Positions 5,139 through 59,477 of a DNA stretch of 64,000 nucleotides are shown in pieces; the stretch's first letter is position 1, and every line of letters starts with the position of its first letter. The position numbers were made by a program, and so were the translations under genes. A model generated the notes under the pieces. That model saw nothing but the letters and a program-made list of their open reading frames with translations. It ran no database searches and had not been told where the DNA came from. Source of the stretch: an uncultured Clostridia bacterium (lineage in GTDB: Bacteria; Bacillota; Clostridia; TANB77; CAG-508); assembly GCA_934130285.1 (NCBI GenBank), contig CAKOXT010000001.1:435232-499231 (forward strand), given 5' to 3'.

Positions 5139-7148
5139 TTAAATATTTCCACCGTCTGTCATATTATATGTTTCTCCTTTAGCTGTACCACTTACTGGCA
5201 CACTTAGTTGTTTGTATGTTTTTCCGTCTGCTGATATGCATATTGTTCCAATGTATGACCAATGATCAACAACAAGCCATCTTACATCAAATATATAATA
5301 TTGTTTTCCTGCACTATCTTTTCCCCAACCTGAATATGTATATCCTATATTATATCCAGTTTCTTCTGATGTAGTTCCCCATGTTTTTTCAGCTAATTTT
5401 TGTGCTTGGTCTTTTCCTATTGCTCCTTTTTCTGTTGGTTCGTCAGATGTATTTGTTGATGTTGATATAGTTGCTGAAGGCGTTGGTGTTGTACTTGGTG
5501 TTGGTGTTACGCTTTCTTCTTTGTAGCTTTCCATATAATGTTTTATTGCTTTTCCACCTTTGAATGTTAGCTCTGATGTTTTATATCCGTTTGTTATGTT
5601 TACTATTACTGTTTGTATACAGCTCCACTGTCCACCTGCATGTTCGAATTCACCTAATATGCATAATTCATTTTTATCATTAATGTATACTTTTAATTTT
5701 TCTATACTTTTTTTGATTCCGTCTTGCCATCCTGTTACTGTTTTATCATCATATAACGTACTCCAATTTGTTCCTAGTGCTGCTTTTTCTTTTGCTACTA
5801 GTGTATCATAATCTTTTCTTACTGCTTCTGTTGCTTTTGTTATTATTTCATCTTTACTTGAATTGTATTGTTTTATTAAATCTTCACTACTTATTTTGTT
5901 TAGTGTTTGTAAGTCAATATTATATGTGTCTGCTGTTATTGTTTCATTTCCGCCACTCCATACTAATACTGATAATACTGATTTATTTATTGTATATGAA
6001 TAAGAAATTTCTTCTGTTTCATATCCAACTTGGTCATAATAATTTGATGAGTTCATGCTGTCGCTAAATCCATATTTTTTCTTTATTTCTGTATTCATTG
6101 CTGCGACGTCTGTTGAATCTATGTTAATACATGGATACTCATATGTATTTCCATTTATTGTTTTTGTTGCTACTGAATAAACTATTTCTTTGCTATTATC
6201 TAATTTTTTAACATTCTTTAATGTTTTTACAGCTTCAACTTTTTCTTTTACTTCATCTGTTATCATATCGTCAGTATCAACATAATCTTTTTTAGCTTCT
6301 TCAAAAACTTTTTCTTTATCTTTTTTACTTGCGTCTTTGTCAAAGTCTACTTTTTCACTGTAATTTTCATCAACTTCTACGCAATCTGTATTTTTTGTTA
6401 ATTTTACTTCTTCTGATTTATATTCTTTATTCTCTAAATTTAAATCATAATATTTTGATGAGTTGTCTGCTTGTTTTTCAACAGCATACCAAACATAATC
6501 ATCTTTATTTGCATCATATACTAGTTTTAACTCAAAATCTTTGTCTAATGATACTTTTATTGTATCAACTTCATTTTTGTCGTTTATCTTGTATATATTT
6601 GCAATGTATTCTTTTGCATTTTTTATTCCATAAATGATTAACTCTGGTATTTTATCTCTATCCAAATCACATAATTGAATTTTTTGATTATCCATATCGT
6701 CTAATTTGTTTTTATCGTTTAGAACTTCAAGATATACATCTCCCCATTCTAATTTGCTTTGCTCTTTTGAATTGTCATCTCCATTTTCTGACATGTAGTA
6801 CCATACTCCTGCGCCAGCTCCAGCTAATAGTACAATTATTATAGCAATTACTAATATTATTTTCTTTTTGCTTTTTTTCTTGCCATTCTTTTTAGCTTCT
6901 TTAGACTTTTCTTCTGTTTTGTCTTTTTTATTTTTTTCTGGTTGTTGTGTTTCTTCAGCTTTTGGCTCTTCTTCAACTGATTTAGATTTTTCAGCTTCTT
7001 CTATTGCTCTTTTTTCTTCTTCAGCTTTTTTTGCTTCTTCATTTTTTTGAGCTTCTAGTTCTTTTGTCGCTTCTTCTATGTTTGCTCCGCATTTTGTACA
7101 GAATTTTGAGTTATCTGCAATTTTTTCATTACATTTAGGGCATATCAT
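5139..7148 (-). CDS. Zinc-ribbon domain membrane protein (N-terminal CxxC..CxxC, Lys/Glu-rich linker, single TM, large extracytoplasmic domain with a Thr/Pro/Ser linker)
   Basis: N-terminus MICPKCNEKIADNSKFCTKCGANIEE, then TM ILVIAIIIVLLAGAGAGVWYY, then TPTPSTTPTPSATISTSTNTS. It is a paralog of 58155..59477, with about 80% nucleotide identity over the first ~70 nt. Confidence 0.55.
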   Translation of the reverse strand: MICPKCNEKIADNSKFCTKCGANIEEATKELEAQKNEEAKKAEEEKRAIEEAEKSKSVEEEPKAEETQQPEKNKKDKTEEKSKEAKKNGKKKSKKKIILVIAIIIVLLAGAGAGVWYYMSENGDDNSKEQSKLEWGDVYLEVLNDKNKLDDMDNQKIQLCDLDRDKIPELIIYGIKNAKEYIANIYKINDKNEVDTIKVSLDKDFELKLVYDANKDDYVWYAVEKQADNSSKYYDLNLENKEYKSEEVKLTKNTDCVEVDENYSEKVDFDKDASKKDKEKVFEEAKKDYVDTDDMITDEVKEKVEAVKTLKNVKKLDNSKEIVYSVATKTINGNTYEYPCINIDSTDVAAMNTEIKKKYGFSDSMNSSNYYDQVGYETEEISYSYTINKSVLSVLVWSGGNETITADTYNIDLQTLNKISSEDLIKQYNSSKDEIITKATEAVRKDYDTLVAKEKAALGTNWSTLYDDKTVTGWQDGIKKSIEKLKVYINDKNELCILGEFEHAGGQWSCIQTVIVNITNGYKTSELTFKGGKAIKHYMESYKEESVTPTPSTTPTPSATISTSTNTSDEPTEKGAIGKDQAQKLAEKTWGTTSEETGYNIGYTYSGWGKDSAGKQYYIFDVRWLVVDHWSYIGTICISADGKTYKQLSVPVSGTAKGETYNMTDGGNI

Positions 7149-14335: not shown

Positions 14336-14848
14336 TTAAATTAATATAATAACTAAACCAACTCCTAAAATTACACCAAGCTTTTTGTACATTGTTTCAT
14401 TTTTATCTTTATCAATCTTGGCTTTTTCTATTTGTCTTTCTAATAATTCATTAACAAAATTTATTTGATTAATCTGACCTTCTTTATTAGTTTTTCCAAG
14501 CAATATTCCAAATTCTTTTAATACTTTTTTGTCTTCTTTTTTCAAGCTAAGTTCTATGGTTTTTACTTGATTTTTCCATGCTTGTTCTGCACCTTGTTCT
14601 TTTATATTATCAGCAACATTTTTAAATAGTTCTGATATTGAATATGTAGAAATTTCCGCAATTTCAGTAAATATTTCTTCTAATGGTTCATATGTGTATT
14701 TGATTTTATTTTCTATTATTTTAAAATCGTTTTTTAGTTCGTCAAGTTCCTCTAGCCTATATCTATATTTTTGAGATAATAAAATTCCAATTTTAGCTGA
14801 ACATATAATTATCCCAATCGCTAAAATAATTTTCAAAATCATAAACAT
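14336..14848 (-). CDS. spoIIIAB: Stage III sporulation protein AB
   Basis: 170 aa with N- and C-terminal TMs. Operon position fits. Confidence 0.65.
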   Translation of the reverse strand: MFMILKIILAIGIIICSAKIGILLSQKYRYRLEELDELKNDFKIIENKIKYTYEPLEEIFTEIAEISTYSISELFKNVADNIKEQGAEQAWKNQVKTIELSLKKEDKKVLKEFGILLGKTNKEGQINQINFVNELLERQIEKAKIDKDKNETMYKKLGVILGVGLVIILI

Positions 14849-15760
14849 TCTCTTTTATATTCCTTTTTATTTTTATCTAAAAAGTACACTCCTTGTACTT
14901 TTTCTTTTTTATATTTGTCTAATATAATTATTTTTTCTATTATGTTGTATTTTAGTAGCTCTTGAAGCTCTGGATTAATTTTAATATCATTTAAGGAATT
15001 TCCATGAGCTGTTAATAAAGCTTTTGTTCCTGAACACATTGCGTAATATATCATTTTACTGTCTTCTATTCCTCCTATTTCGTCTACCGCTATTACTTCT
15101 GGCGCCATTGATCTTATTAATAATTTAATTCCTATTTTCTTTGGAATATTTGATATTACATCTGTTCTCAATCCTAAATCTGTTTGTTCGAATCCCTTGT
15201 ACATTGAAGCTAATTCATTTCTTTCATCAACCACACCTACATTTAGTCCTTTATTATATTTGTTTCCATCACTAATTTGTCTTATTAAGTCTCTTAGTAA
15301 TGTTGTTTTTCCAGTGCCGCGGACTACCTACTATTAAAGTATTTTGAAAATCGCCGTTTTCGTACAGCTCATGCAAAATAAAATCTCCGCAGCCTTTAAT
15401 TTCTCTGGCAATTCTGAAATTCATTCCAGATATGTATGAAATGTTGGTAATTTTTTCATCTTCATTTATTGCGTTTCCTACTACACCAACTCTATGTCCT
15501 CCAGCTAGTGTTATAAATCCTTGTGATATTTGTTTTTCATATGTATATATAGAATTTTCGGTGACTTTTTCTAAAGTTTCTAATAAGTCTTTGGCTGTAA
15601 CTTTGTAACTTAAAATCATTTCTTCATTATTAAATTTTAATATAATATTCTTATTTCCTCGAAGTCTGATTTCTTCTAAAGTATCAGCTTTTTCTTTTAT
15701 GATTTTTGTATTTAATAAATTATAAATATTTTTAGATAAATAATTAAAAACCTCTATCAT
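14839..15760 (-). pseudogene. spoIIIAA: Stage III sporulation protein AA (AAA+ ATPase) interrupted by a +1 frameshift in the Walker A motif; it could be a sequencing error or real decay
   Basis: The upstream ORF ends ...LIVGSPRHWKNNITKRLNKTN*. Shifting one nucleotide at ggtagtccgCggcactggaaaaacaaca gives GTGKTTLLRDLIRQISDGNKYNKGLNVGVVDERNEL, which joins the downstream ORF 14839..15234. The two ORFs in the track (15272..15760 and 14839..15234) are therefore one gene. Confidence 0.65.
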
Positions 15761-16424: not shown

Positions 16425-17702
16425 CTAATTTGTTTTTATTGTTACTGATGTAATCAATCTTGATTTATATGTTGCTTTTATTTCATATGTTTTTGAACTA
16501 TCTAGTGAATCTGTTAATGCTACTAATTTTTCTTTATCTGTCCCATCTTCTTCTGTGTCATCAAATTTTACTGATATTACTTGACTTTCGTCTGTTGCTG
16601 ACTCATTAATTGATGTAATTGCTTCTATTAATGATTTAACATCTGTTGAGCTTTTTTCGCTTCCAACATATGCTTCAACTTTAGCATTTATTATTGCTTT
16701 TTCTTGTTCAGACAATTCTGTATTTGTTTCTTCTGAATTGCCACTAGACCTTGATTTTAATTCTTCAAATGATTTTAATTTATATCCATCATCTGTCTTA
16801 ATAAATGTATATTTATAATCTTTTATTTTATTTAGATCAACATACTGGGAAACTGTATCATAAACATATCCATCTGCATCTTCACTTGAATCTGTTCTCA
16901 AAGATTCTTCATAATCAGTATATGAGAATGCTGTTAATACACTATCATCTACAAAATCTTTTGTTTGAAAATCATATTCTGCAAATAATTGACATCCCAT
17001 TGCATTTATTTGCTCTGAGAAAAATGGATCAATAAATATTGGTTTTACATATACTTCTATTTTACTATTGTATTTTACTGCTTTTGTTATTATTTCTGTT
17101 ACTTCTGGTGGATTTGATTCTTCTACATCACTTTCTTGTACTTCATAATTAGCAGTGTTCTTGTTATATGTGTATCCTATTGTTTTATATTCATCTATAA
17201 AATTTGTATCACTATCGAACAAACTAAAATCTTTATATTCTACTACGCCATCTTTAAATATTTTTTGAGCATATTCATCGATTTTATCTTTAGATACTGA
17301 TTTTGTGCTACCTTCTTTATCCATATCTGAATTAGTAACTTGTGCCATTGCTAATTGTAATTTTAATTCATTTCTTATATTGTCATTATCTTGGTCGAAG
17401 CCACCTGATGCATAAACTGCGTACTTAGCAAATGTCTTTTTGTTTCCTGCTAATTTGTATGCATCTTTTATATCATTGTCACTATTTATTAAGTCCTCAG
17501 ATGTAATTTCTTCTCCTACTTCATCATCTACTGATGGCTCATTTTCTTCTTGTCCAGAGTTTGGAGAATTTGAAATTAATGGTTCATCTGACTTATTGTT
17601 CTTATTGCTACCTAATATAATTACACATGTTAATATTATAGCTACTAGTAGTGCAATAAAAATGACAAGTGCCACTAATGGTATTCCTTTTTTTCTTTTC
17701 AT
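16425..17702 (-). CDS. Hypothetical secreted or membrane-anchored protein (425 aa)
   Basis: N-terminal TM/signal (IPLVALVIFIALLVAIILTCVIIL) and an acidic Asp/Glu/Ser-rich extracellular domain. No family recognised. Confidence 0.45.
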   Translation of the reverse strand: MKRKKGIPLVALVIFIALLVAIILTCVIILGSNKNNKSDEPLISNSPNSGQEENEPSVDDEVGEEITSEDLINSDNDIKDAYKLAGNKKTFAKYAVYASGGFDQDNDNIRNELKLQLAMAQVTNSDMDKEGSTKSVSKDKIDEYAQKIFKDGVVEYKDFSLFDSDTNFIDEYKTIGYTYNKNTANYEVQESDVEESNPPEVTEIITKAVKYNSKIEVYVKPIFIDPFFSEQINAMGCQLFAEYDFQTKDFVDDSVLTAFSYTDYEESLRTDSSEDADGYVYDTVSQYVDLNKIKDYKYTFIKTDDGYKLKSFEELKSRSSGNSEETNTELSEQEKAIINAKVEAYVGSEKSSTDVKSLIEAITSINESATDESQVISVKFDDTEEDGTDKEKLVALTDSLDSSKTYEIKATYKSRLITSVTIKTN

Positions 17703-23361: not shown

Positions 23362-23814
23362 CTATTTTATATATAAAATTTTATTATTTTCTGGAGTTAT
23401 TTTGACTGTACTGTTATAACATTCTCCTGTGTAATAATTCACAATATATGTATCTTCTGTATTAGTTATTCCTATTTCCTTTAATTGTTCAGGTGTAAGT
23501 GTATAATAAATTTTATCAACATCGCTTTCACCCCAATATTGATTTTCTTCTTCCCAAACTATATCACCATCGGGTTTTTGACTGCATTGTGTTCCAACTA
23601 TAAAGCTGGCATCTCCTGTTGTTTTATATTGCTCATATTGTTCATATATTGCATGATGAACAGCCTCTAAATCTGCAAGCAATTGTTTTTCTTTACTGTA
23701 ATTTGCACCTGTAATTGAATAATTAATCGTTATTGCTGCAATTATAGCTAATACTATAATTGTTATTACTAATACTATCATTGTAATTCCGTTATTATTT
23801 TTTATCTTTCGCAT
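23362..23814 (-). CDS. Small prepilin-like protein (atypical class III-like N-terminus, two Cys in the C-terminal region)
   Basis: N-terminus MRKIKNNNGITMIVLVITIIVLAIIAAITI resembles a prepilin cleavage/methylation segment (G-I-T-M-I...) but lacks Glu+5. It shares the GIT[LM]I[AV]LVITI motif with the 604-aa vWA protein at 51743..53557. Confidence 0.4.
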   Translation of the reverse strand: MRKIKNNNGITMIVLVITIIVLAIIAAITINYSITGANYSKEKQLLADLEAVHHAIYEQYEQYKTTGDASFIVGTQCSQKPDGDIVWEEENQYWGESDVDKIYYTLTPEQLKEIGITNTEDTYIVNYYTGECYNSTVKITPENNKILYIK

Positions 23815-40523: not shown

Positions 40524-43376
40524 TTATATGTTTGGTGTTTGATTTGTTGTATCGTTTGTTACCACTGAATTTTCTGTTGTCACATTTGTTGATGTAGAAT
40601 TCTCTGGTATTGAGTTTGTTGGTGCCGGAGTAGTTAGTGGTTCATCATTATTTTGTTCATTGGTATTATATATTATTTTAACTGTTGAGTTATTTAATTC
40701 AGTTCCATAGTCTTTAAATTTAATTTCAACAGGTTCTTTACTACTGCTTGTTACGTCTATTTTGTTACAATTTTTCATTAGTATTCCATTAGTTACTCTA
40801 TAAGAAGTATTAGCAAAATATTTTCTTAACATATTTCTTAATTCTTTATATTGTGATATATCAACTTCATTTTCTTGAACATTGCTTGTATTTACAGTTA
40901 TTGTTGCATTACTAAAGTTTACATTTGGATTCTCTGTTTTTAGTTTTGCAAATTGCTCATAACTAACACCTTCTGCTACTATTGATAGAAACTCTCTTTT
41001 TAATGATGTTACAGAACTTATAAGCTCTGTAAGATTTGTGTTTTTTGAAATATTTATTATATTTAAAGCTGGTAATTTAGAAAAATCAAAGTTCTTATCA
41101 AGGTTACAGTCTGTTAAATTTAATACTCCTAAAGTTTCACTAGTTAATGTTCCTGTCAAATTTTTATTTCCAGCTAGTGATAAAGATGTAAGGTTTTTTA
41201 TTTTTGAAAGTTCATTTAAGTCTGTAAAATCGTTATTTTCTAGACTTAAATTATATAAATTTTCTAATCCTGCAATCTCAGAAACATCTTTTATATCGCA
41301 ATTATTTAACATAATTGTATCTGTGGTTGTTAACACTTGTAAGCCTGTCACATTTTTATTTCCAGATAAATCTATCCAATATATTTCTTTATCTTTAAGG
41401 CTTGATACATCTTTTATATTATTGTTAGCAAGTTCTAAAGAAATTGTTGTATTTATTTCTCCAAATATGCTAACATCTTCAATTCCACAATTTTCCGCCT
41501 TTATTGTAAATGTCATATACATTTCATCTGAATTTTCAAACTGTACTTGGCTTAAACTGCTCCAATCTGTTATTGGATTTCCAGATACATCTAATTCATA
41601 TATATTTTTAAAATTTTCTACTCCATTAAGAGTTGTTATATTATTATTTGCTATAATTAATGCACTTATATTTTGTAATATTCCTTCAGACTGTGGTACT
41701 TGTGTTAAATTACAATTGGTTAAATTTAAAATATTGAGGCTTTCTGGCAATTTGTCTAGCCCTGTTATTCCAGGTGTATCTTCAACTATTAAACTCATTA
41801 AATTTTGGCAATTTTGCAAACTACTTACATCTTTTATTTTGCAATTACTTATATCTAGCATTCCTAAATTTGATAATTCTCCCATACCAGTTACATACGG
41901 ATTGTTAGATATGTTTAAATTTAGAGTCATATAGTCTTGCTGTTTTTCCATATTTTTTAATACACTTACATCTTTTATTTGATTATTTGATGCATATATA
42001 TTTGATAATGTTTTTATTTTTGTAAGTGGTGTTAAATCTTTTATATTGTTATTTGAAATATCAATTGAATATATATTATTAAAAATTTCTATTCCATTTA
42101 ATGAATACATATTTCTATTAGATAAATCTATAGTCATTATATTTGAAATAACATTTTTAGTTATATAGTCTTCTCCATTGTATTTTATAAATAAATGACT
42201 ATAATTTTCTTTTAGATAATTCTTTATTGCAGTGTTTTGAATTGAATTTATTTTATATGCACTTTCTATTGATGTTGATACAATTCCACTAAGATTTAAC
42301 TCTACATATTTGTCATCATATGAAATATAGTAATATCCATTATTATTAGAAAATTCTCCCCATGAATTTAAAGCTATATATGCTCCGTCATGTTCTGGAG
42401 TGTGACCATTGTCTGAAAAATTTTCTTTTGAATAATTGTCATCCCATCCAACAATCGTTACTGCGTGGTTTGTCCATAGTTCGTCATTATCTGGGCTTAC
42501 ATATGCATTTTCTAATCCAGTTCCAACTATTGATGTATATAATCCGCCATTTTTCATGATATGTTTTTTTACTGCATCCCTATATTCTTTAAGTTGTTCT
42601 TCAGTGTATTTTTCTTCTATATTTTTGTATATTGAAGGAAAGTCAACTGTTTCCGTTACTTCTATCACTTTTTCCATGTCTGGAAATTTTTCATATTCTT
42701 CTTCTGAATATTCTTTAAAATCATATGGTACCTTTTCTTCTAATACCACTCCTGACTCTGCTAAATATTCTTTAAACATTCCAAAATTTCCGCCCTCATG
42801 TAGTTCTCTTGATCCATACATTAAATTTGATGTTATATAGTCTACATGTAATTCAGAAAAATCATAATTTCCTAAGTTATTTAGTGCAAGATATGTTTCA
42901 AGGCTCTTAATTGATGCGAAATCCCAACACAATCCATATCCACCTTGATTTTCCACTTTTATATCTATTTTGTCTGCTAAATTAAATTGTGTAGGTATTT
43001 CATTATTTGTTTTGTCTCCTTTATCAAGATTCTCTTTTATATCTTCAATTTTTTCAAAAGGCACTTCTTCTTTTCTTGGAATTACTTCTAGGTCTTTCTT
43101 TTCTTCTTCTGGTAGTTCTAAGTATTCTTTATACATTTCAGAATAATTTTTCTCTTCATCTTTTTGACTTTCTGAACTTATACCAGCAATTTCTTTTTCA
43201 ACATCTGTTAATGTATCTATGCTTTTTTCTTTATCTTGGTTTGTAATATCTGATTGAGCAATTTTTGACTGTTCTTTTTCTTTTGACTTGTTTACAACAT
43301 ATATTCCTGCTACTATACCAAGCATTATAGCTATAACAGCTATCACAGCAATGATACTGCGTCTTTTATTTTTCAT
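40524..43376 (-). CDS. Large membrane-anchored surface protein: papain-like (C1) cysteine peptidase domain fused to internalin-like leucine-rich repeats
   Basis: N-terminal TM. C1 catalytic triad contexts QGGYGLCWDFAS (Cys), NHAVTIVGWDDN (His) and NSWGEF (Asn). More than 15 LRR units follow (LxxLxxLxLxxNxIxDxxxL, e.g. LSNIYASNNQIKDVSVL). The C-terminus has a Thr/Asn-rich tail and no LPXTG. Confidence 0.7.
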   Translation of the reverse strand: MKNKRRSIIAVIAVIAIMLGIVAGIYVVNKSKEKEQSKIAQSDITNQDKEKSIDTLTDVEKEIAGISSESQKDEEKNYSEMYKEYLELPEEEKKDLEVIPRKEEVPFEKIEDIKENLDKGDKTNNEIPTQFNLADKIDIKVENQGGYGLCWDFASIKSLETYLALNNLGNYDFSELHVDYITSNLMYGSRELHEGGNFGMFKEYLAESGVVLEEKVPYDFKEYSEEEYEKFPDMEKVIEVTETVDFPSIYKNIEEKYTEEQLKEYRDAVKKHIMKNGGLYTSIVGTGLENAYVSPDNDELWTNHAVTIVGWDDNYSKENFSDNGHTPEHDGAYIALNSWGEFSNNNGYYYISYDDKYVELNLSGIVSTSIESAYKINSIQNTAIKNYLKENYSHLFIKYNGEDYITKNVISNIMTIDLSNRNMYSLNGIEIFNNIYSIDISNNNIKDLTPLTKIKTLSNIYASNNQIKDVSVLKNMEKQQDYMTLNLNISNNPYVTGMGELSNLGMLDISNCKIKDVSSLQNCQNLMSLIVEDTPGITGLDKLPESLNILNLTNCNLTQVPQSEGILQNISALIIANNNITTLNGVENFKNIYELDVSGNPITDWSSLSQVQFENSDEMYMTFTIKAENCGIEDVSIFGEINTTISLELANNNIKDVSSLKDKEIYWIDLSGNKNVTGLQVLTTTDTIMLNNCDIKDVSEIAGLENLYNLSLENNDFTDLNELSKIKNLTSLSLAGNKNLTGTLTSETLGVLNLTDCNLDKNFDFSKLPALNIINISKNTNLTELISSVTSLKREFLSIVAEGVSYEQFAKLKTENPNVNFSNATITVNTSNVQENEVDISQYKELRNMLRKYFANTSYRVTNGILMKNCNKIDVTSSSKEPVEIKFKDYGTELNNSTVKIIYNTNEQNNDEPLTTPAPTNSIPENSTSTNVTTENSVVTNDTTNQTPNI

Positions 43377-51717: not shown

Positions 51718-51746
51718 ATTATATTACTTTTCATTAATTTTGTCAA
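51718..51746 (-). promoter_or_regulatory. Perfect-consensus sigma-A promoter for typA (TTGACA-17-TATAAT)
   Basis: Minus-strand sequence ttgacaaaattaatgaaaagtaatataat. The 5' UTR contains the GC hairpin ggggcgtagattctacgccc. Confidence 0.5.
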
Positions 51747-53557
51747 TCTGTATATACTATTACTGTTTTATTATATTTTAATGTTAGTTCAGTTGATGAA
51801 AGTCCACTATATACCCATGCATTTTCTAGTGTTATCTGCTTATTATCTTTATTATAAATTGCATCTAAGTTATAAATTCCTCCACTTCCATTTCCATTTC
51901 TTTGGAATGTCATTGTTCTCTTTTCACCTGTTTCGCTATTCTCTAGTTCTAAAACAACTTTATTTACATTTTCAAGTTCTAGTTCTTTTAATTCACCTGT
52001 TGTCGTATCTCTTGTCATAATTGAGTGAGAATTGTCTGCATCTGTCATAGCGTCTTGGTTTATTTTTATTGATTCTGCTATTGCCTTAAATGCATTTATT
52101 AATTCTGTGGCATTATCTGCTGTATATGCACCTTTTATGTTTTCTTTAAAGTACTGTGGAAATGATTTTGCTTCTTTTCCAAGTCCAACAGCGTATACGT
52201 CTGTTGGATGGTCTCCTTTAACAATTTGCATTATATTTTTAGCAACATTACCAATACTAGTTGTTGTATTCGTACATGGCCACCAATAAGCGTTTGAGTC
52301 ACCATCTGTCATAATAATTACATCTGTTGGCATATTTGCATCAGTTGTTTGAATATAATTATATGCATAATTCAAAGCGTTTGGTGCACAAGTACTATAA
52401 TTTAATGATGCTGGTGTTATTCCTGAATACAATCTTGAATATTGACTATTAGCAAGCCTACAATTTATTTGATAGGTTCCTCTTGAAGAAATAGAAAAAT
52501 AGTCATCTATTCTTAAATCACTGTTTGTATATGATATAGCTCTCCAGCCATATCGGTTTTCATAACTTTTGTATGTATCTATTATTGTTTTGACCATATT
52601 TGTATACTGTGCTTCTGAAAAAATAGTGCTATATAATGATTTAGCTTCATCTTTATTGGTACATGTTCCTAGTTCTCGAATTCCGCTGTCATTTGCTCCA
52701 TAAAAAGTTATAATTGTAACTTTCCTATCCGTTGATGGAGTGTTTCCAAAATATGTATCCATAAATTGGTCCATTGCTGTTACTGTTGAGTACCATCTTG
52801 TTTGTTGGTATCCCGCTGTATAATTTATTGATCCGTCACTATTATAACAAATAGGAATATCTTCATCTTTATCAGCTACATTGGCTACTGCTGGATCATT
52901 TGGATCGTTACATAAAGCCATTGAAACCGTTCTGTCTATTACCATTACTACTTCATGCGATTGTACTACTTCTTTTGGGTTTACTGATAATTTTATTAAT
53001 TGTGATTCGAATTCAGATGTATTTTTCTTTTTATCAGCTCCACCAAAATTTGATAGTTTGCCATATGTCTTTTGATTTTTTAGATATGCTGCATTTAAAT
53101 CCACATCTACAACATATATTCCTTTATCCTGCAAATCAGATAATTCTTTATATTTGAAGTTTGTTAGTTTCTCTTCGTTCTCATATTCTTTTGCTTTTAA
53201 TCCTAAGGTATCAGCTACTGAAATGTCGGGGTTTTCAAAATTTACATAGTACAAATACTTGTCATCATCTTCACTGTCACTTTTGGCTCCAGTTAATGTA
53301 ATCTTTTTAAGAATCCCTTCTGATACTAAATCATCCAATGACTTTTTTGATGATGAATAAGCATTATTACTTTTTAATGTATATGCTTTAATACTATCAT
53401 CTAAAGCTTGGACTTTATTCATATATTTTCCTGTTCTCATTCCAGAAAAAATTCCGTTTTCCCCTAATGTAAATGTTATTGTAACTGTTGATAACACTAT
53501 CATTACTAGTATTGTAATTACTAGTGCTATTAAAGTTATTCCTCTTTGGTTTCTCAT
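51743..53557 (-). CDS. Modular prepilin-like protein carrying a von Willebrand factor A (vWA) domain
   Basis: N-terminus MRNQRGITLIALVITILVMIVLSTV is an atypical class III-like segment. The vWA MIDAS region is VVMVIDRTVSM (DxTxS) and the beta4 strand VIIMTDGDSN. There is no LPXTG. Size 604 aa. Confidence 0.55.
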   Translation of the reverse strand: MRNQRGITLIALVITILVMIVLSTVTITFTLGENGIFSGMRTGKYMNKVQALDDSIKAYTLKSNNAYSSSKKSLDDLVSEGILKKITLTGAKSDSEDDDKYLYYVNFENPDISVADTLGLKAKEYENEEKLTNFKYKELSDLQDKGIYVVDVDLNAAYLKNQKTYGKLSNFGGADKKKNTSEFESQLIKLSVNPKEVVQSHEVVMVIDRTVSMALCNDPNDPAVANVADKDEDIPICYNSDGSINYTAGYQQTRWYSTVTAMDQFMDTYFGNTPSTDRKVTIITFYGANDSGIRELGTCTNKDEAKSLYSTIFSEAQYTNMVKTIIDTYKSYENRYGWRAISYTNSDLRIDDYFSISSRGTYQINCRLANSQYSRLYSGITPASLNYSTCAPNALNYAYNYIQTTDANMPTDVIIMTDGDSNAYWWPCTNTTTSIGNVAKNIMQIVKGDHPTDVYAVGLGKEAKSFPQYFKENIKGAYTADNATELINAFKAIAESIKINQDAMTDADNSHSIMTRDTTTGELKELELENVNKVVLELENSETGEKRTMTFQRNGNGSGGIYNLDAIYNKDNKQITLENAWVYSGLSSTELTLKYNKTVIVYTD

Positions 53558-53660
53558 ATTTTATCTCCTTTTAGCATATATATATTTATTATAATTATAA
53601 TTATTTTTCTTTTCAATATATCTTTAACAATTGTAATAAATTTATTATATAGGGGGTTTT

Positions 53661-56940: not shown

Positions 56941-57546
56941 TTAAACCGGTTTTGCATAAACTACATATCTTTGTGTTGCATATCCTATATTGTTAAATGG
57001 ATAGCATGTATAACACATTAATATTTCTTCATCTTTTTGAATTGGTAATGCTGCCAAATCAGTTTCATCAACTAGTTTCATATCATAAATTTTGTATTTA
57101 AACTCACCGTATGCTGCTTTTATTGTTATTTCATCACCTTTTGAAAGTTCTGAAAATCTACGAAATACATTTTGTGAATTATGCCCCATATAAATTATTG
57201 AGCCCCCCTCTCCAGGAAAAAAGCTTGCACTGTCATGTCCAACACCATTTTTTAATACATCTAATGTGCTACCAAAGTACACTGGTAAATCTACATTTAT
57301 TTTTGGTATTTCGATGGTTGCATATTGAGTTCCATATTCAGGATAGTTTTGAATTTTATTTGTGTCTAAATCAATTGACATTACTTCATTCTTTTTACTA
57401 CTTGTATCTACTGCAATTTTATTTATCAAAGAAATGTTCAATTCAATTTTTCGCCCTAAAAACACATATATTAATCCAAAAAAAGCTATTACAATTAAAA
57501 AAGCAACTATTATGTTTTTAATAGTTGCTTTAATTGCATATTTCAT
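56941..57546 (-). CDS. Sortase (cysteine transpeptidase), N-terminally membrane-anchored
   Basis: Catalytic-His region IYMGHNSQNVFRRFSELSKGDEITIKAAYGEFKYKIYDM aligns with SrtA IAGHTF...F..L..KGSMVYFKV...YKM. The Cys motif is ILMCYTCYPF (TLxTC-like) and the Arg is in ATQRYVVYA. Size 201 aa. Confidence 0.7.
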   Translation of the reverse strand: MKYAIKATIKNIIVAFLIVIAFFGLIYVFLGRKIELNISLINKIAVDTSSKKNEVMSIDLDTNKIQNYPEYGTQYATIEIPKINVDLPVYFGSTLDVLKNGVGHDSASFFPGEGGSIIYMGHNSQNVFRRFSELSKGDEITIKAAYGEFKYKIYDMKLVDETDLAALPIQKDEEILMCYTCYPFNNIGYATQRYVVYAKPV

Positions 57547-57559
57547 TTATTATCCTTAA

Positions 57560-58084
57560 TTATTCTGCAGTAGCAGCTATTCTTTTTTTGATTATAACAG
57601 CAGCTAAGGCGATTGCTGCAACTGATGAAACAGTTATAGCTACTATGTTTAATGAATTTCCTGTATAAGCTAATTTTCCATCATGATTTGTTACTACCAT
57701 TAATTTTTTTCCATTTTTCCAAATTTCTACACCCTGTGCTTTGAAAACTAATGAAACTCCAACTTCGCTAGCAGCAGAATTTGCAATTGATTTTAATTGA
57801 TCTTTTTGGGCTGTTGTTAAATCACTGTAATTTGTTTTTCCAGCAGCTGTCATAACTGCTTCTGCTTCTTTAGCTTTTTCAACTAATTTTGTTGCTTGAG
57901 CTTCTGTTATTTCATTTCTGTCTATAAAATTTTGTAATTGTTGTTTGTCATTTTCTGTCATTCCATATTTTGATCCTATTGTATAAATTTCATTAACTGA
58001 ATCTGCTGTTGTTGCATTTACGCTAACAGCTAACATCCCCATTAGTACAACTGCTAATGTTGCTATCACAAATAATTTTTTCAT
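57560..58084 (-). CDS. Small cell-wall-anchored sortase substrate (LAYTG sorting signal)
   Basis: Sec signal peptide (MKKLFVIATLAVVLMGMLAVSVNA). The C-terminus reads ...KLAYTGNSLNIVAITVSSVAAIALAAVIIKKRIAATAE: LAxTG motif, hydrophobic span and a basic tail. Confidence 0.65.
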   Translation of the reverse strand: MKKLFVIATLAVVLMGMLAVSVNATTADSVNEIYTIGSKYGMTENDKQQLQNFIDRNEITEAQATKLVEKAKEAEAVMTAAGKTNYSDLTTAQKDQLKSIANSAASEVGVSLVFKAQGVEIWKNGKKLMVVTNHDGKLAYTGNSLNIVAITVSSVAAIALAAVIIKKRIAATAE

Positions 58085-58154: not shown

Positions 58155-59477
58155 CTAAATTTTTAAAATTCCCCATTTTCCATCTTTTTCCACAAACATT
58201 TTTTTATCATGCACACTTCTTGTTTCTTGATATTTGCATTTTACTACTTCTTCACCTTTTTCATTTATTATACCTGCTAACTTGTCTTTTTTTACTGCTG
58301 CATATCCATCTGTGAAGTCGTATGCTTCATCATAATCACAATTAATTGCAAGTTCACCTGTGGTTGTATCAAAATAACCTTTAGTTAATAATGTTGATTT
58401 GGCAAAATCTATTGAAAAACTTTCAGGTAAATCTGCGTCCTTGGCTGCTATTCCTGTATTTGTTACTAAATCTATATCTGTACAGACTTTTAATTCTTTT
58501 TTAGTAGTCGTGTTTGCTTTTACTAAAGTACACTCTTGTGAAGGACTGTTGTAATAAATTGCTGGTCCATGATGATCATAAAAATATGTTCCTTTATCTG
58601 TATTATTAATTATATTCACTTCTGTTGAAACTTTATAATCTTTGTCTAGTTTGTAGTATTTTTCTATATCTTTTACCACAATTCCTGTTTCTTTCTCATT
58701 TTCTGTTTTACCAATGTCATAATATTCTGTATTTAATATTTGGCTATATTTTGCTTCTAATATAATTTCTCCAGAATCATTGCTTATTAATCCTTGCTTT
58801 TTATCTTTTTCTATGATTGATACTTCTGCATTTAAATCCTTTATATCATCTGCATCGATTGTTGGCTCTTTTACCCAATTTTCATTTTCAGTAATTTCTG
58901 CCTGTAAAGATTTGTCATTTTCCTTTACTTCTTTATTTAAATTAATTACATTTTGTAAAGTTTTATCAAATTCTTCTACTTGTTTTTGAGCAACTTCTGG
59001 CAATATCCCTTGGTTATAACAATAGTAAATTCCAGCTATAATTAGAGCAGCAACTATAATCATAAAAATAATTTTATTAAATATTCTTTGAAAAATATTC
59101 TTTTTTATTTTTACTTTTTTCTTCTTTTTATTTTTTGTTTTTTCATCCTCTTTTTTCTTGAATTCTGAATTTGGAGTTTCTTCTTTATGTTGTGGCTGAT
59201 CAATTATTTCTAGTTCTATTCCTTCTTCTTTAGCTTGCCTAATTGCTTCAGCTTTTTCAGCTTCTTTTAATTCTTCTTCTCTCTTTAATTCTTCTTGTCT
59301 TCTAATTTCTTCTAATTTTTTTCTATCTTCTATCTCTTTTTTTCTTCTCTCTAATTCTTGTTCTCTTTTTAGTTCTTCCTCTTCTTGTTTTTTCTTTTCT
59401 TCTTCTATGTTTGCTCCGCATTTAGTACAAAACTTTACATTATCTGCAATTTCTTGATCACATTTTGGACATTTCAT
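58155..59477 (-). CDS. Zinc-ribbon domain membrane protein (paralog of 5139..7148)
   Basis: N-terminus MKCPKCDQEIADNVKFCTKCGANIEE, an E/K/R-rich coiled region, a TM (IIFMIIVAALIIAGIYY) and an extracytoplasmic domain. Confidence 0.55.
   Translation of the reverse strand: MKCPKCDQEIADNVKFCTKCGANIEEEKKKQEEEELKREQELERRKKEIEDRKKLEEIRRQEELKREEELKEAEKAEAIRQAKEEGIELEIIDQPQHKEETPNSEFKKKEDEKTKNKKKKKVKIKKNIFQRIFNKIIFMIIVAALIIAGIYYCYNQGILPEVAQKQVEEFDKTLQNVINLNKEVKENDKSLQAEITENENWVKEPTIDADDIKDLNAEVSIIEKDKKQGLISNDSGEIILEAKYSQILNTEYYDIGKTENEKETGIVVKDIEKYYKLDKDYKVSTEVNIINNTDKGTYFYDHHGPAIYYNSPSQECTLVKANTTTKKELKVCTDIDLVTNTGIAAKDADLPESFSIDFAKSTLLTKGYFDTTTGELAINCDYDEAYDFTDGYAAVKKDKLAGIINEKGEEVVKCKYQETRSVHDKKMFVEKDGKWGILKI

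Follow-up and report, generated by a model that had tools for sequence, protein, structure and literature searches.

A vWA-domain protein with a Glu5-less, type IV pilin-like N-terminus in an uncultured gut Clostridia bacterium: a putative modular pilin-like adhesin

The gene at 51743..53557 on the reverse strand of the window, which is the whole 64,000-nucleotide stretch of DNA analysed here, encodes a 604-aa protein whose N-terminus is, as judged from sequence, homologous to the N-termini of type IV pilins. A structure search with the predicted model confirmed that the same protein contains a vWA domain with its Rossmann-like alpha/beta fold. The 604-aa protein is probably a modular type IV pilin-like adhesin, either PilB-like or pilin-anchored, with its machinery encoded elsewhere. 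We likewise favour the view that its N-terminus is a lineage-specific class III variant, in which a short basic leader precedes ITLIALVITI... and Ala takes the place of the glutamate at position +5 (Glu5). A second gene, at 23362..23814 on the same strand, encodes a 150-aa protein of pilin size that belongs to the same N-terminal class. Both open reading frames were recovered as the initial annotation had given them, and both genes have good Shine-Dalgarno sequences, with the ribosome-binding site AAAGGAGA upstream of the longer one.

A class III signal peptide is defined as a hydrophilic leader of 6–51 residues ending in Gly (PMC6916266). The 604-aa protein starts with MRNQRG (53540..53557, reverse strand) followed by ITLIALVITILVMIVL, and the 150-aa protein with MRKIKNNNG followed by ITMIVLVITIIVLAI, so that the leaders are 6 and 9 residues long and both end in Gly. 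Gly6 of the 604-aa protein is invariant among its orthologues and aligns with Gly-1 of solved pilins; the predicted prepilin-peptidase cleavage falls after it. The alpha1N-like hydrophobic segment ITLIALVITILVMIVLSTVTITFTL occupies 53465..53539 (reverse strand) and lies within a helix at residues 4–31 of the AF2 model, while the 150-aa protein continues from its leader into ITMIVLVITIIVLAIIAAITINYSI. In both proteins, this stretch provides the approximately 21 mostly hydrophobic, pilin-similar residues expected of alpha1N, but neither protein has the Glu of type IV pilins at +5, where Ala11 and Val14 are found in the 604-aa and 150-aa protein, respectively.

The two proteins scored 91.9 and 71.4 bits against an HMM of the motif. 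A profile-profile comparison with hhalign (E 4.6e-11) showed that only the first ∼32 residues are common to them, with no homology detectable past ∼30 residues. These results bear out the earlier claim of a common N-terminal motif that lacks Glu at +5. The shared segment is not a chance similarity, since it recurs in thousands of proteins. A six-frame regex scan of the window located the motif only at these two places, in addition to one spurious 11-residue fragment. A 425-aa open reading frame at 16425..17702 (reverse strand) carries a degenerate form, MKRKKGIPLVALVIFIALLV, which scored 17.3 bits with an E-value of 5e-4 in an HMM search among the ORFs of the window and of the metagenome loci described below, and its class membership is uncertain.

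The relationship to pilins was obtained from a search of the N-terminal profile (A4) against 177,635 PDB sequences. Type IV pilins or pseudopilins made up 16 of the 18 matches, including the best 15 (best E 1.2e-4), and in their alignments Gly-1, Thr+2, Leu+3, Ile+4 and Leu+6 were in exact register. The initial annotation had noted a resemblance to a class III leader and hydrophobic stem, and this in-register recovery of pilins upholds it. Compared with the canonical class III/N_methyl signal (PF07963, IPR012902, TIGR02532), the window N-termini have the same Gly-ended hydrophilic leader, the same ∼21–25 hydrophobic residues, and Thr+2, Leu+3, Ile+4 and Leu+6. They differ from it in having Ile for Phe/Met at +1 and Ala, Val or Ser for Glu at +5, in another conserved Thr at +9, and also in the G-E-N-G turn at +26..+29 seen in most class members. 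Against PF07963, the 604-aa protein scored 14.8 bits, below the cut-off of 21.2, and the 150-aa protein had no match; TIGR02532 matched neither window protein.

Glu5 is treated as near-universal among the type IV pilins of bacteria and is credited with driving the docking of subunits into the filament. It is also built into the tools by which pilins are found, namely PF07963, TIGR02532 and PilFind, and a Glu5-less class of at least 22,000 clusters is therefore largely invisible to annotation. The motif was matched at E ≤ 1e-10 by 22,222 clusters (50% identity), which represent tens of thousands of unannotated gut-bacterial proteins; the few named members that we met are entered as "hypothetical protein". 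Position +5 is occupied by A, V, T, I, M or S, with Glu in 0/97 and 0/123 sequences. The description of the motif as unusual thus holds only in part: it is present in the two window proteins, but it is not peculiar to them, and the absence of Glu5 is the rule of a large class. A full-text literature search with the string ITLIALVIT found no paper, and the consensus N-terminus had no tblastn match among plasmids and phages, for which low-complexity masking is a possible cause.

Members of the class differ widely outside this segment. The domains fused to it include Big_2, LRR, fn3, Glug, FGE-sulfatase and many other surface domains, and the genes of eight different motif proteins were all orphans among housekeeping genes. 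Leader length varies from 5 to 57 residues, conservation begins sharply at an invariant Gly, and the first 10 mature residues are near-invariant among otherwise unrelated members. Such conservation suggests that packing or recognition constrains them more tightly than a simple anchor would require. We also considered an ordinary uncleaved Sec signal anchor, which would make the 604-aa protein a type II membrane vWA protein whose likeness to prepilins stems from hydrophobic composition. The sub-cut-off scores for PF07963 and VWA_2, the unmatched TIGR02532 and the lack of pilus genes in the window would suit such a protein. It is nevertheless very unlikely, given the sharp onset of conservation, a PDB search that included many membrane proteins and still yielded pilins almost exclusively and in register, and the occurrence of the motif in pilus operons beside a peptidase gene.

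These operons were found in 7 of 80 motif-carrying gut-metagenome loci, in which a type IV pilus operon has the motif gene as its pilin gene (L022, L033, L039, L042, L074 and L096, and a partial operon in L024). The genes are arranged in the order pilMN-like, pilO-like, a ∼150-aa gene, the GITL pilin, prepilin peptidase, D5 pilin, S5 pilin, pilB, pilT and pilC. A PilB/PilC-type machine and a peptidase thus accompany the same N-terminus in relatives. The GITL pilin gene adjoins the peptidase gene and its product would begin, once mature, with identical residues (ITLIALVITI...); the 604-aa protein and the L039 operon pilin agree in all of their first 10 mature residues. All pilins of these operons lack Glu5 and have Ala, Asp or Ser instead. 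Those that share their N-terminus with the 604-aa protein exceeded the PF07963 cut-off (22.2 and 22.5 versus 21.2 bits). The 150-aa window protein showed no detectable homology to the operon pilins beyond ∼30 residues. The carriers are related low-GC gut bacteria, and the PNPase of L024 is 76% identical to that of the window.

In L039, the encoded proteins matched T2SSE (341.9 bits), TIGR01420 (320 bits, at cut-off), T2SSF (100.9 bits) and A24_N_bact (104.5 bits), and the operon ATPase scored 404.8 bits as PilB versus 207.4 as ComGA. As PilT passes TIGR01420, the system appears to be a retractile type IV-a pilus and not a competence pseudopilus. This bears on another reading, under which a ComG competence apparatus or a system resembling type II secretion would use the 604-aa protein as a minor pseudopilin; we regard it as extremely unlikely. 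Competence pili are widespread in monoderm bacteria and related N-termini gave weak, sub-threshold NCBIfam matches to GspG and ComGF, but the operons combine PilT and the PilB-type ATPase with PilMNO-like genes, and the vWA cargo suits adhesion more than DNA uptake. It had been suggested that the window proteins could be pseudopilins of a competence or pilus system encoded elsewhere; pilin homology and the operon pilins speak for a pilus system, whereas PilT (TIGR01420) speaks against competence.

The operon peptidase is divergent. No Peptidase_A24 catalytic domain was recognisable in it, even at E ≤ 10, and only two invariant Asp residues remain, which makes the cleavage itself uncertain; its search against PDB sequences returned nothing relevant. 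Promoter and terminator scans in L039 and L033 were uninformative on which pilin is the major one. An alternative genetic code was considered for L005/L006, where genes look fragmented, and was rejected: the TGT gene is frameshifted and has no in-frame TGA interruptions. A Tad-type cluster with 143–236-aa bitopic "pilin-like" proteins has been described from the uncultured gut order TANB77 (PMC11680825). The two cases share their setting in uncultured low-GC gut Clostridia, perhaps of one broad lineage, and their small bitopic pilin-like proteins, but the TANB77 cluster is of the Tad/Cpa type (CpaB, TadZ, CpaF, TadBC), while the operons described here are of the PilB/PilT/PilC type, and no Tad-type ATPase was found near motif genes in 1.09 Mb of loci.

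Beyond its N-terminus, the 604-aa protein is composed of three further modules, all on the reverse strand. The stalk module (aa 32–199; 52961..53464) was modelled by AF2 as a helix at residues 36–61 with approximately five short strands and may represent a pilin-like head; it had no Pfam match and its conservation is confined to orthologues. The vWA domain (52058..52960), recognised from Foldseek and profile matches and from invariant columns, carries a MIDAS and a large variable insertion (∼aa 320–388). A beta-rich C-terminal domain follows (aa 501–604; 51746..52057), with AF2 strands at 502–603. The model of the 150-aa protein consists of a single helix (residues 7–66) and a small sheet (pLDDT 80.9), and Foldseek found no PDB match for it.

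The vWA fold was identified by comparing the 604-aa model, with pLDDT of ∼80–90 over most of residues 200–500, to the PDB with Foldseek. The search gave 83 matches at E ≤ 1e-3, in which the vWA domains of integrin I, Rpn10, TFIIH p44 and the anthrax receptor matched at TM(target) values of 0.66–0.71. A sequence-profile match to the vWA domain of complement C2 (E 0.0027) aligned T389 and D418 with its MIDAS region. The initial annotation had made the vWA assignment dependent on profile searches; at the level of the fold, the assignment holds. Putative metal-binding MIDAS residues are present in the sequence and conform to the DxSxS...T...D pattern (D208-R-T210-V-S212, T389 and D418). Among 15 orthologues, D208, S212, T389 and D418 never vary, and residue 210 is either T or S. 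The segments VVMVIDRTVSM and VIIMTDGDSN, singled out earlier as MIDAS-like, are accordingly parts of the MIDAS of a real vWA fold. The module had also been called clear. This applies at the fold level and not at the Pfam level, because the protein scored 17.1 bits against VWA_2, below the cut-off of 27; two orthologues carry a precomputed PF13519 match.

The best whole-model Foldseek matches were PitA (7w6b) and SpaC (6m48), tip adhesins of sortase-assembled pili. Together with a sortase gene 3.4 kb away, these matches raise the question of whether the 604-aa protein is itself a PitA/SpaC/RrgA-like adhesin of such a pilus. PitA, SpaC and RrgA resemble it in having a vWA domain with inserted "arms" around the MIDAS, and the structural matches are explained by the shared vWA fold. 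They are, however, anchored through LPXTG and sortase, and the 604-aa protein has neither. Its C-terminus (...KTVIVYTD) shows no LPXTG-type or other sorting motif, no hydrophobic tail and no basic end, a cleavable Sec signal peptide is likewise missing, and the sortase encoded nearby comes with a LAYTG substrate of its own. With the sorting signal absent, this reading was rejected and we give it practically no credence.

The gene itself lies between asnB and typA, in an arrangement that is kept among orthologues, and is always an orphan. Approximately 19 full-length orthologues were found (35–95% identity), and the exact protein recurs in no fewer than 49 blocks of the assembly collection. The 150-aa gene is always directly upstream of murB, even for relatives of 40% identity. 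A promoter-like TTGAAA-17-TATAAT (11/12 matches) lies just 5' of the 604-aa gene (53588..53616, reverse strand), and is weak evidence because the regional count of such sites was not above that of shuffled controls. While the adjacent TypA stays at 95–98% identity, the 604-aa protein falls to 36–55%, and its vWA module is the fastest-evolving and most variable part. Such rapid evolution is in keeping with an adhesin that binds host or particles and that selection tends to diversify.

The initial annotation noted that the window lacks genes for a pilus ATPase, a platform protein and a prepilin peptidase. In agreement with this, neither a peptidase gene nor any gene of a pilus machine was found in the window or in 10 kb on each side of it (84 kb in total). 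A membrane-anchored, non-polymerised fate therefore also comes into consideration; the second option of the initial annotation was a distinct family of signal-anchored vWA adhesins. The protein, cleaved or not, would then stay unpolymerised in the cytoplasmic membrane as a bitopic surface protein with a pilin-derived anchor, displaying its vWA domain inside the wall or below it. The conserved helix might help the peptidase or platform to recognise the protein, or let such proteins associate laterally. The orphan position of motif genes among housekeeping genes in every case examined, the divergent catalytic domain of the peptidase and the absence of the docking residue Glu5 (PMC10191384) from every sequence counted would be consistent with this. 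Moreover, in so large and varied a class with such bulky cargo, not all members are plausible occupants of a pilus tip. On the other hand, the identical N-terminus occurs on pilin genes inside operons with a retraction ATPase, the near-invariance of the first 10 mature residues extends across unrelated proteins, and modular pilins at pilus tips are already established. We consider the membrane anchor a possible but less likely alternative.

Streptococcus sanguinis PilB, cited in the initial annotation as a modular pilin with a grafted vWA domain, does combine, in this order, a class III signal peptide, a ∼180-aa pilin module and a vWA domain with a MIDAS (PMC8179133). The 604-aa protein resembles it in the short Gly-ended leader, the hydrophobic helix, the stalk of ∼170–190 residues and the vWA domain, whose MIDAS is complete. 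Monoderm Firmicutes are the source of the two proteins, and each is expected to act as an adhesin. In contrast to PilB, which is encoded in the pil operon (PMC9934059) and which the initial annotation described as keeping Glu5, the 604-aa protein is an orphan gene product with Ala at +5, an additional beta domain at the C-terminus and a large vWA insertion. No sequence similarity to PilB was detectable, and PilB was not among its PDB sequence matches or its top 50 Foldseek matches. The 604-aa protein may share a like working mode with PilB without belonging to its orthologous group. Tip subunits without Glu5 are established (PMC10191384, PMC9934059). GspK/PilK (the K subunit) and S. sanguinis PilA are, however, single operon-encoded Glu5-less subunits per system (PMC9934059, PMC10191384), whereas here the Glu5-less N-terminus spans the 22,222 clusters together with the first pilin of the operon, and the fold evidence is weak.

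If the 604-aa protein is a modular pilin-like adhesin, it would insert into the membrane, and a divergent prepilin peptidase, as in related bacteria, may cut it after Gly6. The hydrophobic helix would keep it in the membrane until uptake by a type IV-a machine (PilB, PilT, PilC and PilMNO-like proteins), presumably encoded elsewhere in the genome. The most plausible site of uptake would be the filament tip, which suits a Glu5-less subunit with a bulky head. The stalk would carry the vWA domain, whose complete MIDAS could bind a ligand through a metal ion; candidate ligands are a protein or glycoprotein of the host, mucus or food particles.

Archaeal proteins with class III signals, such as pilins, archaellins and the sugar-binding proteins of the bindosome, are not known to carry Glu5 and include many non-filament cargoes. 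They offer an analogy for a general use of the signal in display, but they belong to another domain of life, are processed by their own peptidases (PibD, FlaK and EppA) and are served by their own machinery. The sequence similarity found here is to bacterial pilins. More tentatively, this lineage of uncultured low-GC gut Clostridia could combine a retractile pilus without Glu5 pilins with use of the Glu5-less signal as a general surface-display route. Such a route would include a peptidase with an unrecognisable catalytic domain and, in each genome, perhaps tens of orphan proteins with a pilin head, with vWA, Big_2, LRR, fn3, Glug and other proteins handed to, or held by, the pilus machine. 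If true, it would mirror in bacteria the way in which archaea place class III signals on cargo other than pilins. If the class members are true pilus subunits or pilus-dependent, they would form a large share of the adhesive surface in abundant uncultured Clostridia of the human and animal gut, and the "modular pilin" idea would be stretched far past the IPR012902-based catalogue. They would also offer a natural case in which to study how a type IV filament assembles when no Glu5 is there to form a salt bridge with the N-terminal amine.

The open reading frames (ORFs) reported in the initial annotation were found where it had placed them, each with a Shine-Dalgarno sequence: 51743..53557 (minus strand) encodes the 604-aa protein and 23362..23814 (minus strand) the 150-aa protein. 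The unusual N-terminal motif described as common to both, which lacks the usual pilin glutamate at +5 (Glu5, counted after Gly at -1), was likewise confirmed. The 604-aa protein starts MRNQRG-ITLIALVITILVMIVL..., with Ala at +5, and the 150-aa protein MRKIKNNNG-ITMIVLVITIIVLAI..., with Val at +5. A six-frame regular-expression scan of the 64-kb window (G+C 28.5%) found the motif in these two ORFs only, and the motif HMM scored them at 91.9 and 71.4 bits, respectively. Their common part, as delimited by profile-profile comparison, comprises only the first ~32 residues. A third, degenerate motif N-terminus (17.3 bits with the motif HMM) was observed in a 425-aa protein at 16425..17702 (minus strand), which starts MKRKKGIPLVALVIFIALLVAIIL with Pro at +2 and may be a decayed member of the motif class. 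An ORF of similar size, with a weaker HMM match, adjoins holA in the metagenome locus L013.

The pilin nature of this N-terminus was assessed using curated and purpose-built profiles. Pfam N_methyl matched the 604-aa protein at 14.8 bits, below the 21.2 cut-off, and did not match the 150-aa protein; NCBIfam TIGR02532 matched neither. A 70-column N-terminal profile (A4), derived from 62 diverse N-termini, was then compared with all 177,635 distinct PDB sequences. Of the 18 matches, 16 were type IV pilins or pseudopilins, including the top 15; geopilin, S. sanguinis PilE1, PilA, MshA, Thermus PilA5, PAK pilin, PilE and GspG were among the matches. As the PDB holds very many membrane proteins, this result is not a composition effect. 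In the alignments, Gly-1, Thr+2, Leu+3, Ile+4 and Leu+6 were in register, and Ala faced Glu5. Apart from Glu5, the window segment also has every feature by which a class III signal peptide has been defined in the literature, namely a Gly-terminated leader and, after it, ~21 hydrophobic residues (PMC6916266). That the segment is a plain Sec signal anchor is disfavoured as very improbable, and a competence or type II pseudopilin is disfavoured as marginally more so.

The first homology search retrieved ~19 full-length orthologues of the 604-aa protein and ~90 further proteins with the N-terminus alone in common. Domains fused to it included Big_2, LRR, fn3, HYR, Glug and FGE-sulfatase, among others. 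Across 97 distinct N-termini, Gly-1 was present in all, as the extraction pattern itself demanded, and positions +1 to +10 read I-T-L-I-A-L-V-I-T-I in 80-100%, a conservation somewhat inflated by selection for query similarity. At +5 the residue was A, V, T, I or M, with no E in any sequence; G-E-N-G occupied +26..+29 in most members, and the leader was 5-57 residues long. HMMER was run exhaustively over 1.84 billion cluster representatives; 35,355 proteins passed E<=1e-3, of which 22,222 also passed E<=1e-10. Of the best 123 representatives that were new relative to earlier searches, 110 have A at +5, 7 have S, 3 have V, 2 have M and 1 has T. The few members with a source name were labelled 'hypothetical protein', ten NCBI-derived members had no names, and a literature search for the motif found no publication printing the sequence. 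The protein P0265 (706 aa) carries the motif twice, at residues ~8 and ~391, as though two paralogous genes in tandem had been read as a single one; class members can therefore be tandemly duplicated. In the main rival explanation, the N-terminus is of pilin descent but acts today solely as an anchor and a tag for recognition, and the 604-aa protein is never polymerised. The class size and the complete lack of Glu5 speak for it, while the extreme conservation of the N-termini speaks against it; we regard it as possible though rather unlikely.

An AlphaFold2 model of the 604-aa protein, built with 15 orthologues as input (mean pLDDT 74.8), predicted a helix at residues 4-31 that breaks at G-E-N-G, a second helix at 36-61 followed by ~five short strands to residue ~166, an alpha/beta domain at ~200-500 and a beta-rich domain at 501-604. 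The initial annotation had also assigned a vWA module with a MIDAS-like motif, and three results bore this out. Foldseek of the model against the PDB gave 83 matches at E<=1e-3, led by PitA (7w6b) and SpaC (6m48), the vWA tip adhesins of sortase pili, followed by the integrin I, Rpn10, TFIIH p44 and anthrax-receptor vWA domains (TM-scores 0.66-0.71 relative to target). The orthologue profile matched the complement C2 vWA domain (E 0.0027), aligning x-T389-x-x-P-N-A-L and T-D418-G. Furthermore, D208, S212, T389 and D418 were invariant in 15 of 15 orthologues and position 210 was T or S, so the MIDAS site is complete, as a DxTxS variant. No LPXTG-type signal was detected in the 604-aa protein; that it is a sortase-pilus adhesin is disfavoured as exceedingly improbable.

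Exact copies of the 604-aa protein are present in no fewer than 49 blocks of the assembly collection, and the gut sources of the organism were human, mouse and ruminant. Where the neighbouring TypA was 95-98% identical and AsnB ~83%, the 604-aa protein was only 36-55% identical, the vWA module being its most divergent part. The homologue P0005 is 97% identical to the window protein over residues 1-31, 92% over 32-199, 59% over 200-500 and 92% over 501-604. Across P0005 and P0006, identity to the window protein is 85-97% for the N-terminal stalk and the C-terminal domain but only 52-59% for the vWA module. This mosaic suggests module-level recombination or strong diversifying selection, and the divergence pattern is as would be expected for an exposed adhesin.

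The window carries housekeeping genes (pnp, clpXP, tig, tsf, rpsB, lysS, typA, mutS, the spoIIIA operon and others). In line with the initial annotation, no pilus genes lie within the 64 kb, and none were found in the 10 kb beyond each end. The 150-aa protein has ~25 orthologues (34-97% identity), and its gene always directly precedes murB, after which come a cofD/yvcK-like gene, a debranching-enzyme gene and holA; in the window, 8 bases separate its stop codon from the murB start. A 201-aa sortase gene adjoins that of a 174-aa secreted protein (56941..57546 and 57560..58084, both minus strand), whose C-terminus is an LPXTG-like sorting signal made up of KLAYTGNS, then a hydrophobic stretch and KKR. 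This pair, kept in related contigs, is a surface-anchoring system separate from the vWA gene, 3.4 kb away. The proteins at 5139..7148 and 58155..59477 (both minus strand) share near-identical zinc-ribbon N-termini, M(I/K)CPKC(N/D)(E/Q)(K/E)IADN(S/V)KFCTKCGANIEE, a charged linker and a transmembrane segment, and differ in their extracellular parts, with WG_beta_rep repeats in one. A 950-aa surface protein (40524..43376, minus strand) has a papain-like Peptidase_C1 domain together with numerous leucine-rich repeats and a tail rich in Thr and Asn; its N-terminal anchor is an ordinary one, without the pilin-like motif. In addition, a frameshift within the Walker A motif (break ~15235..15272) divides spoIIIAA (14839..15760, minus strand) between two ORFs, reading ...TLIVGSPRH in one frame and RGTGKTTLLRDL in another. 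The gene is likewise in two pieces in the related contig L018; a pseudogene, a sequencing error recurring at this position and programmed frameshifting are candidate explanations.

Motif genes were orphans amid housekeeping genes in all eight genomic contexts, which represent different class members, and this position favours the anchor-and-tag explanation. Scanning metagenome contigs for the motif gave 80 loci, mostly from human gut (670 kb in total, median G+C 28%). In L024, L033 and L039, a PilB-type ATPase lies ~2 kb downstream of the motif gene. L039, from a 281-kb contig, encodes in order a 539-aa PilM/PilN-like protein, a PilO-like protein, a 153-aa membrane protein, a 136-aa pilin, a 271-aa prepilin peptidase, 145-aa and 146-aa pilins, PilB, PilT and PilC; the PilM/N/O names are assigned from where the genes lie, the topology of the proteins and a single weak PilN match. 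PilB matched T2SSE (341.9 bits) and TIGR02538 (404.8 bits), PilT TIGR01420 (320 bits, cut-off 319.1), PilC T2SSF (100.9 bits), the peptidase A24_N_bact (104.5 bits) and a pilin PF07963 (22.2 bits, above cut-off). The 136-aa pilin starts MKNQKG-ITLIALVITIIVLLILAGV..., with Ala at +5; the others have Asp (G-YTGVD, 145 aa) and Ser (G-VTLIS, 146 aa), and none of the operon pilins has Glu5. Using tblastn with the L039 proteins, the operon was also found, usually directly downstream of rsmB, in L022, L033, L042, L074 and L096, with part in L024; L092 has a distant PilMN. Seven of the 80 loci carry the motif in the pilin gene that adjoins the peptidase gene. That identical N-termini belong to pilus operons weighs against a mere anchor.

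The organisms with the operon are relatives of the window's organism among the low-GC Clostridia, given a PNPase fragment in L024 that is 76% identical to the window PNPase and spoVA genes in L033; at least the L033 organism has sporulation genes, as the window's does. The pilin-peptidase-two pilins-pilB block of L024 (1..9463) is ~98-100% identical at the protein level to L039 9998..13916. Its flanks are unlike those of L039: where L039 has pilMNO and pilT/pilC, L024 has an ABC ATPase ORF on the upstream side and an aldose epimerase on the downstream side. This may reflect an additional partial locus, rearrangement in the strain or a contig that is chimeric or misassembled. In L005 (11292..15270) and L006, two independent assemblies, the tgt, clpB, U32 peptidase and GH57 enzyme genes are split at the same places; an in-frame TGA codon was ruled out for tgt, where the break is a frameshift.

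The operon peptidase genes (L039 10485..11300, L033 8359..9174, L022 5705..6523, L096 8269..9081) encode a strong A24_N_bact domain. The Pfam Peptidase_A24 catalytic domain was undetected in them even at E<=10, and L-x-x-D-T-I-T-L stands in place of the GxGD motif; the peptidase activity is therefore putative. Among the four orthologues (57-72% identity), an Asp pair is invariant, D126 in G-I-D-x-E-N and D176 in L-D-T-I-T-L, with a spacing that is compatible with the catalytic pair.

We consider, with moderate confidence, that the 604-aa protein is a pilin-like adhesin of modular build. In this reading, the protein would be cut after Gly6 and kept in the membrane by an alpha1N-like helix. Uptake by a PilB/PilT/PilC machine encoded elsewhere would follow, probably at the filament tip, a known site of subunits that lack Glu5 and have bulky heads, such as the K subunit and S. 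sanguinis PilA (PMC9934059, PMC10191384). Ligand would then be bound through the vWA MIDAS site, as in S. sanguinis PilB (PMC8179133). The 604-aa protein may work like PilB; however, it lacks Glu5, lies outside a pilus operon and has no detected sequence similarity to PilB, and it does not belong to that group. It departs from canonical type IV pilins in Glu5 and in the curated score cut-offs, and shares with them the leader ending in Gly and the hydrophobic segment similar to known pilins. Tad-type pilus clusters that include 'pilin-like proteins' were recently described from TANB77, an uncultured order of gut bacteria (PMC11680825). They give a possible lead on the lineage and represent a different kind of machine from the PilB/PilT/PilC operons identified here. 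Judged from sequence, the Glu5-less class III signal peptides form a very large, largely unannotated class linked to a divergent type IV-a pilus operon. If the Ala+5 pilin is the major subunit of this operon, a bacterial pilus would be built without Glu5; if the Asp+5 pilin is, the motif class would represent minor or tip-type pilins in unusual numbers.
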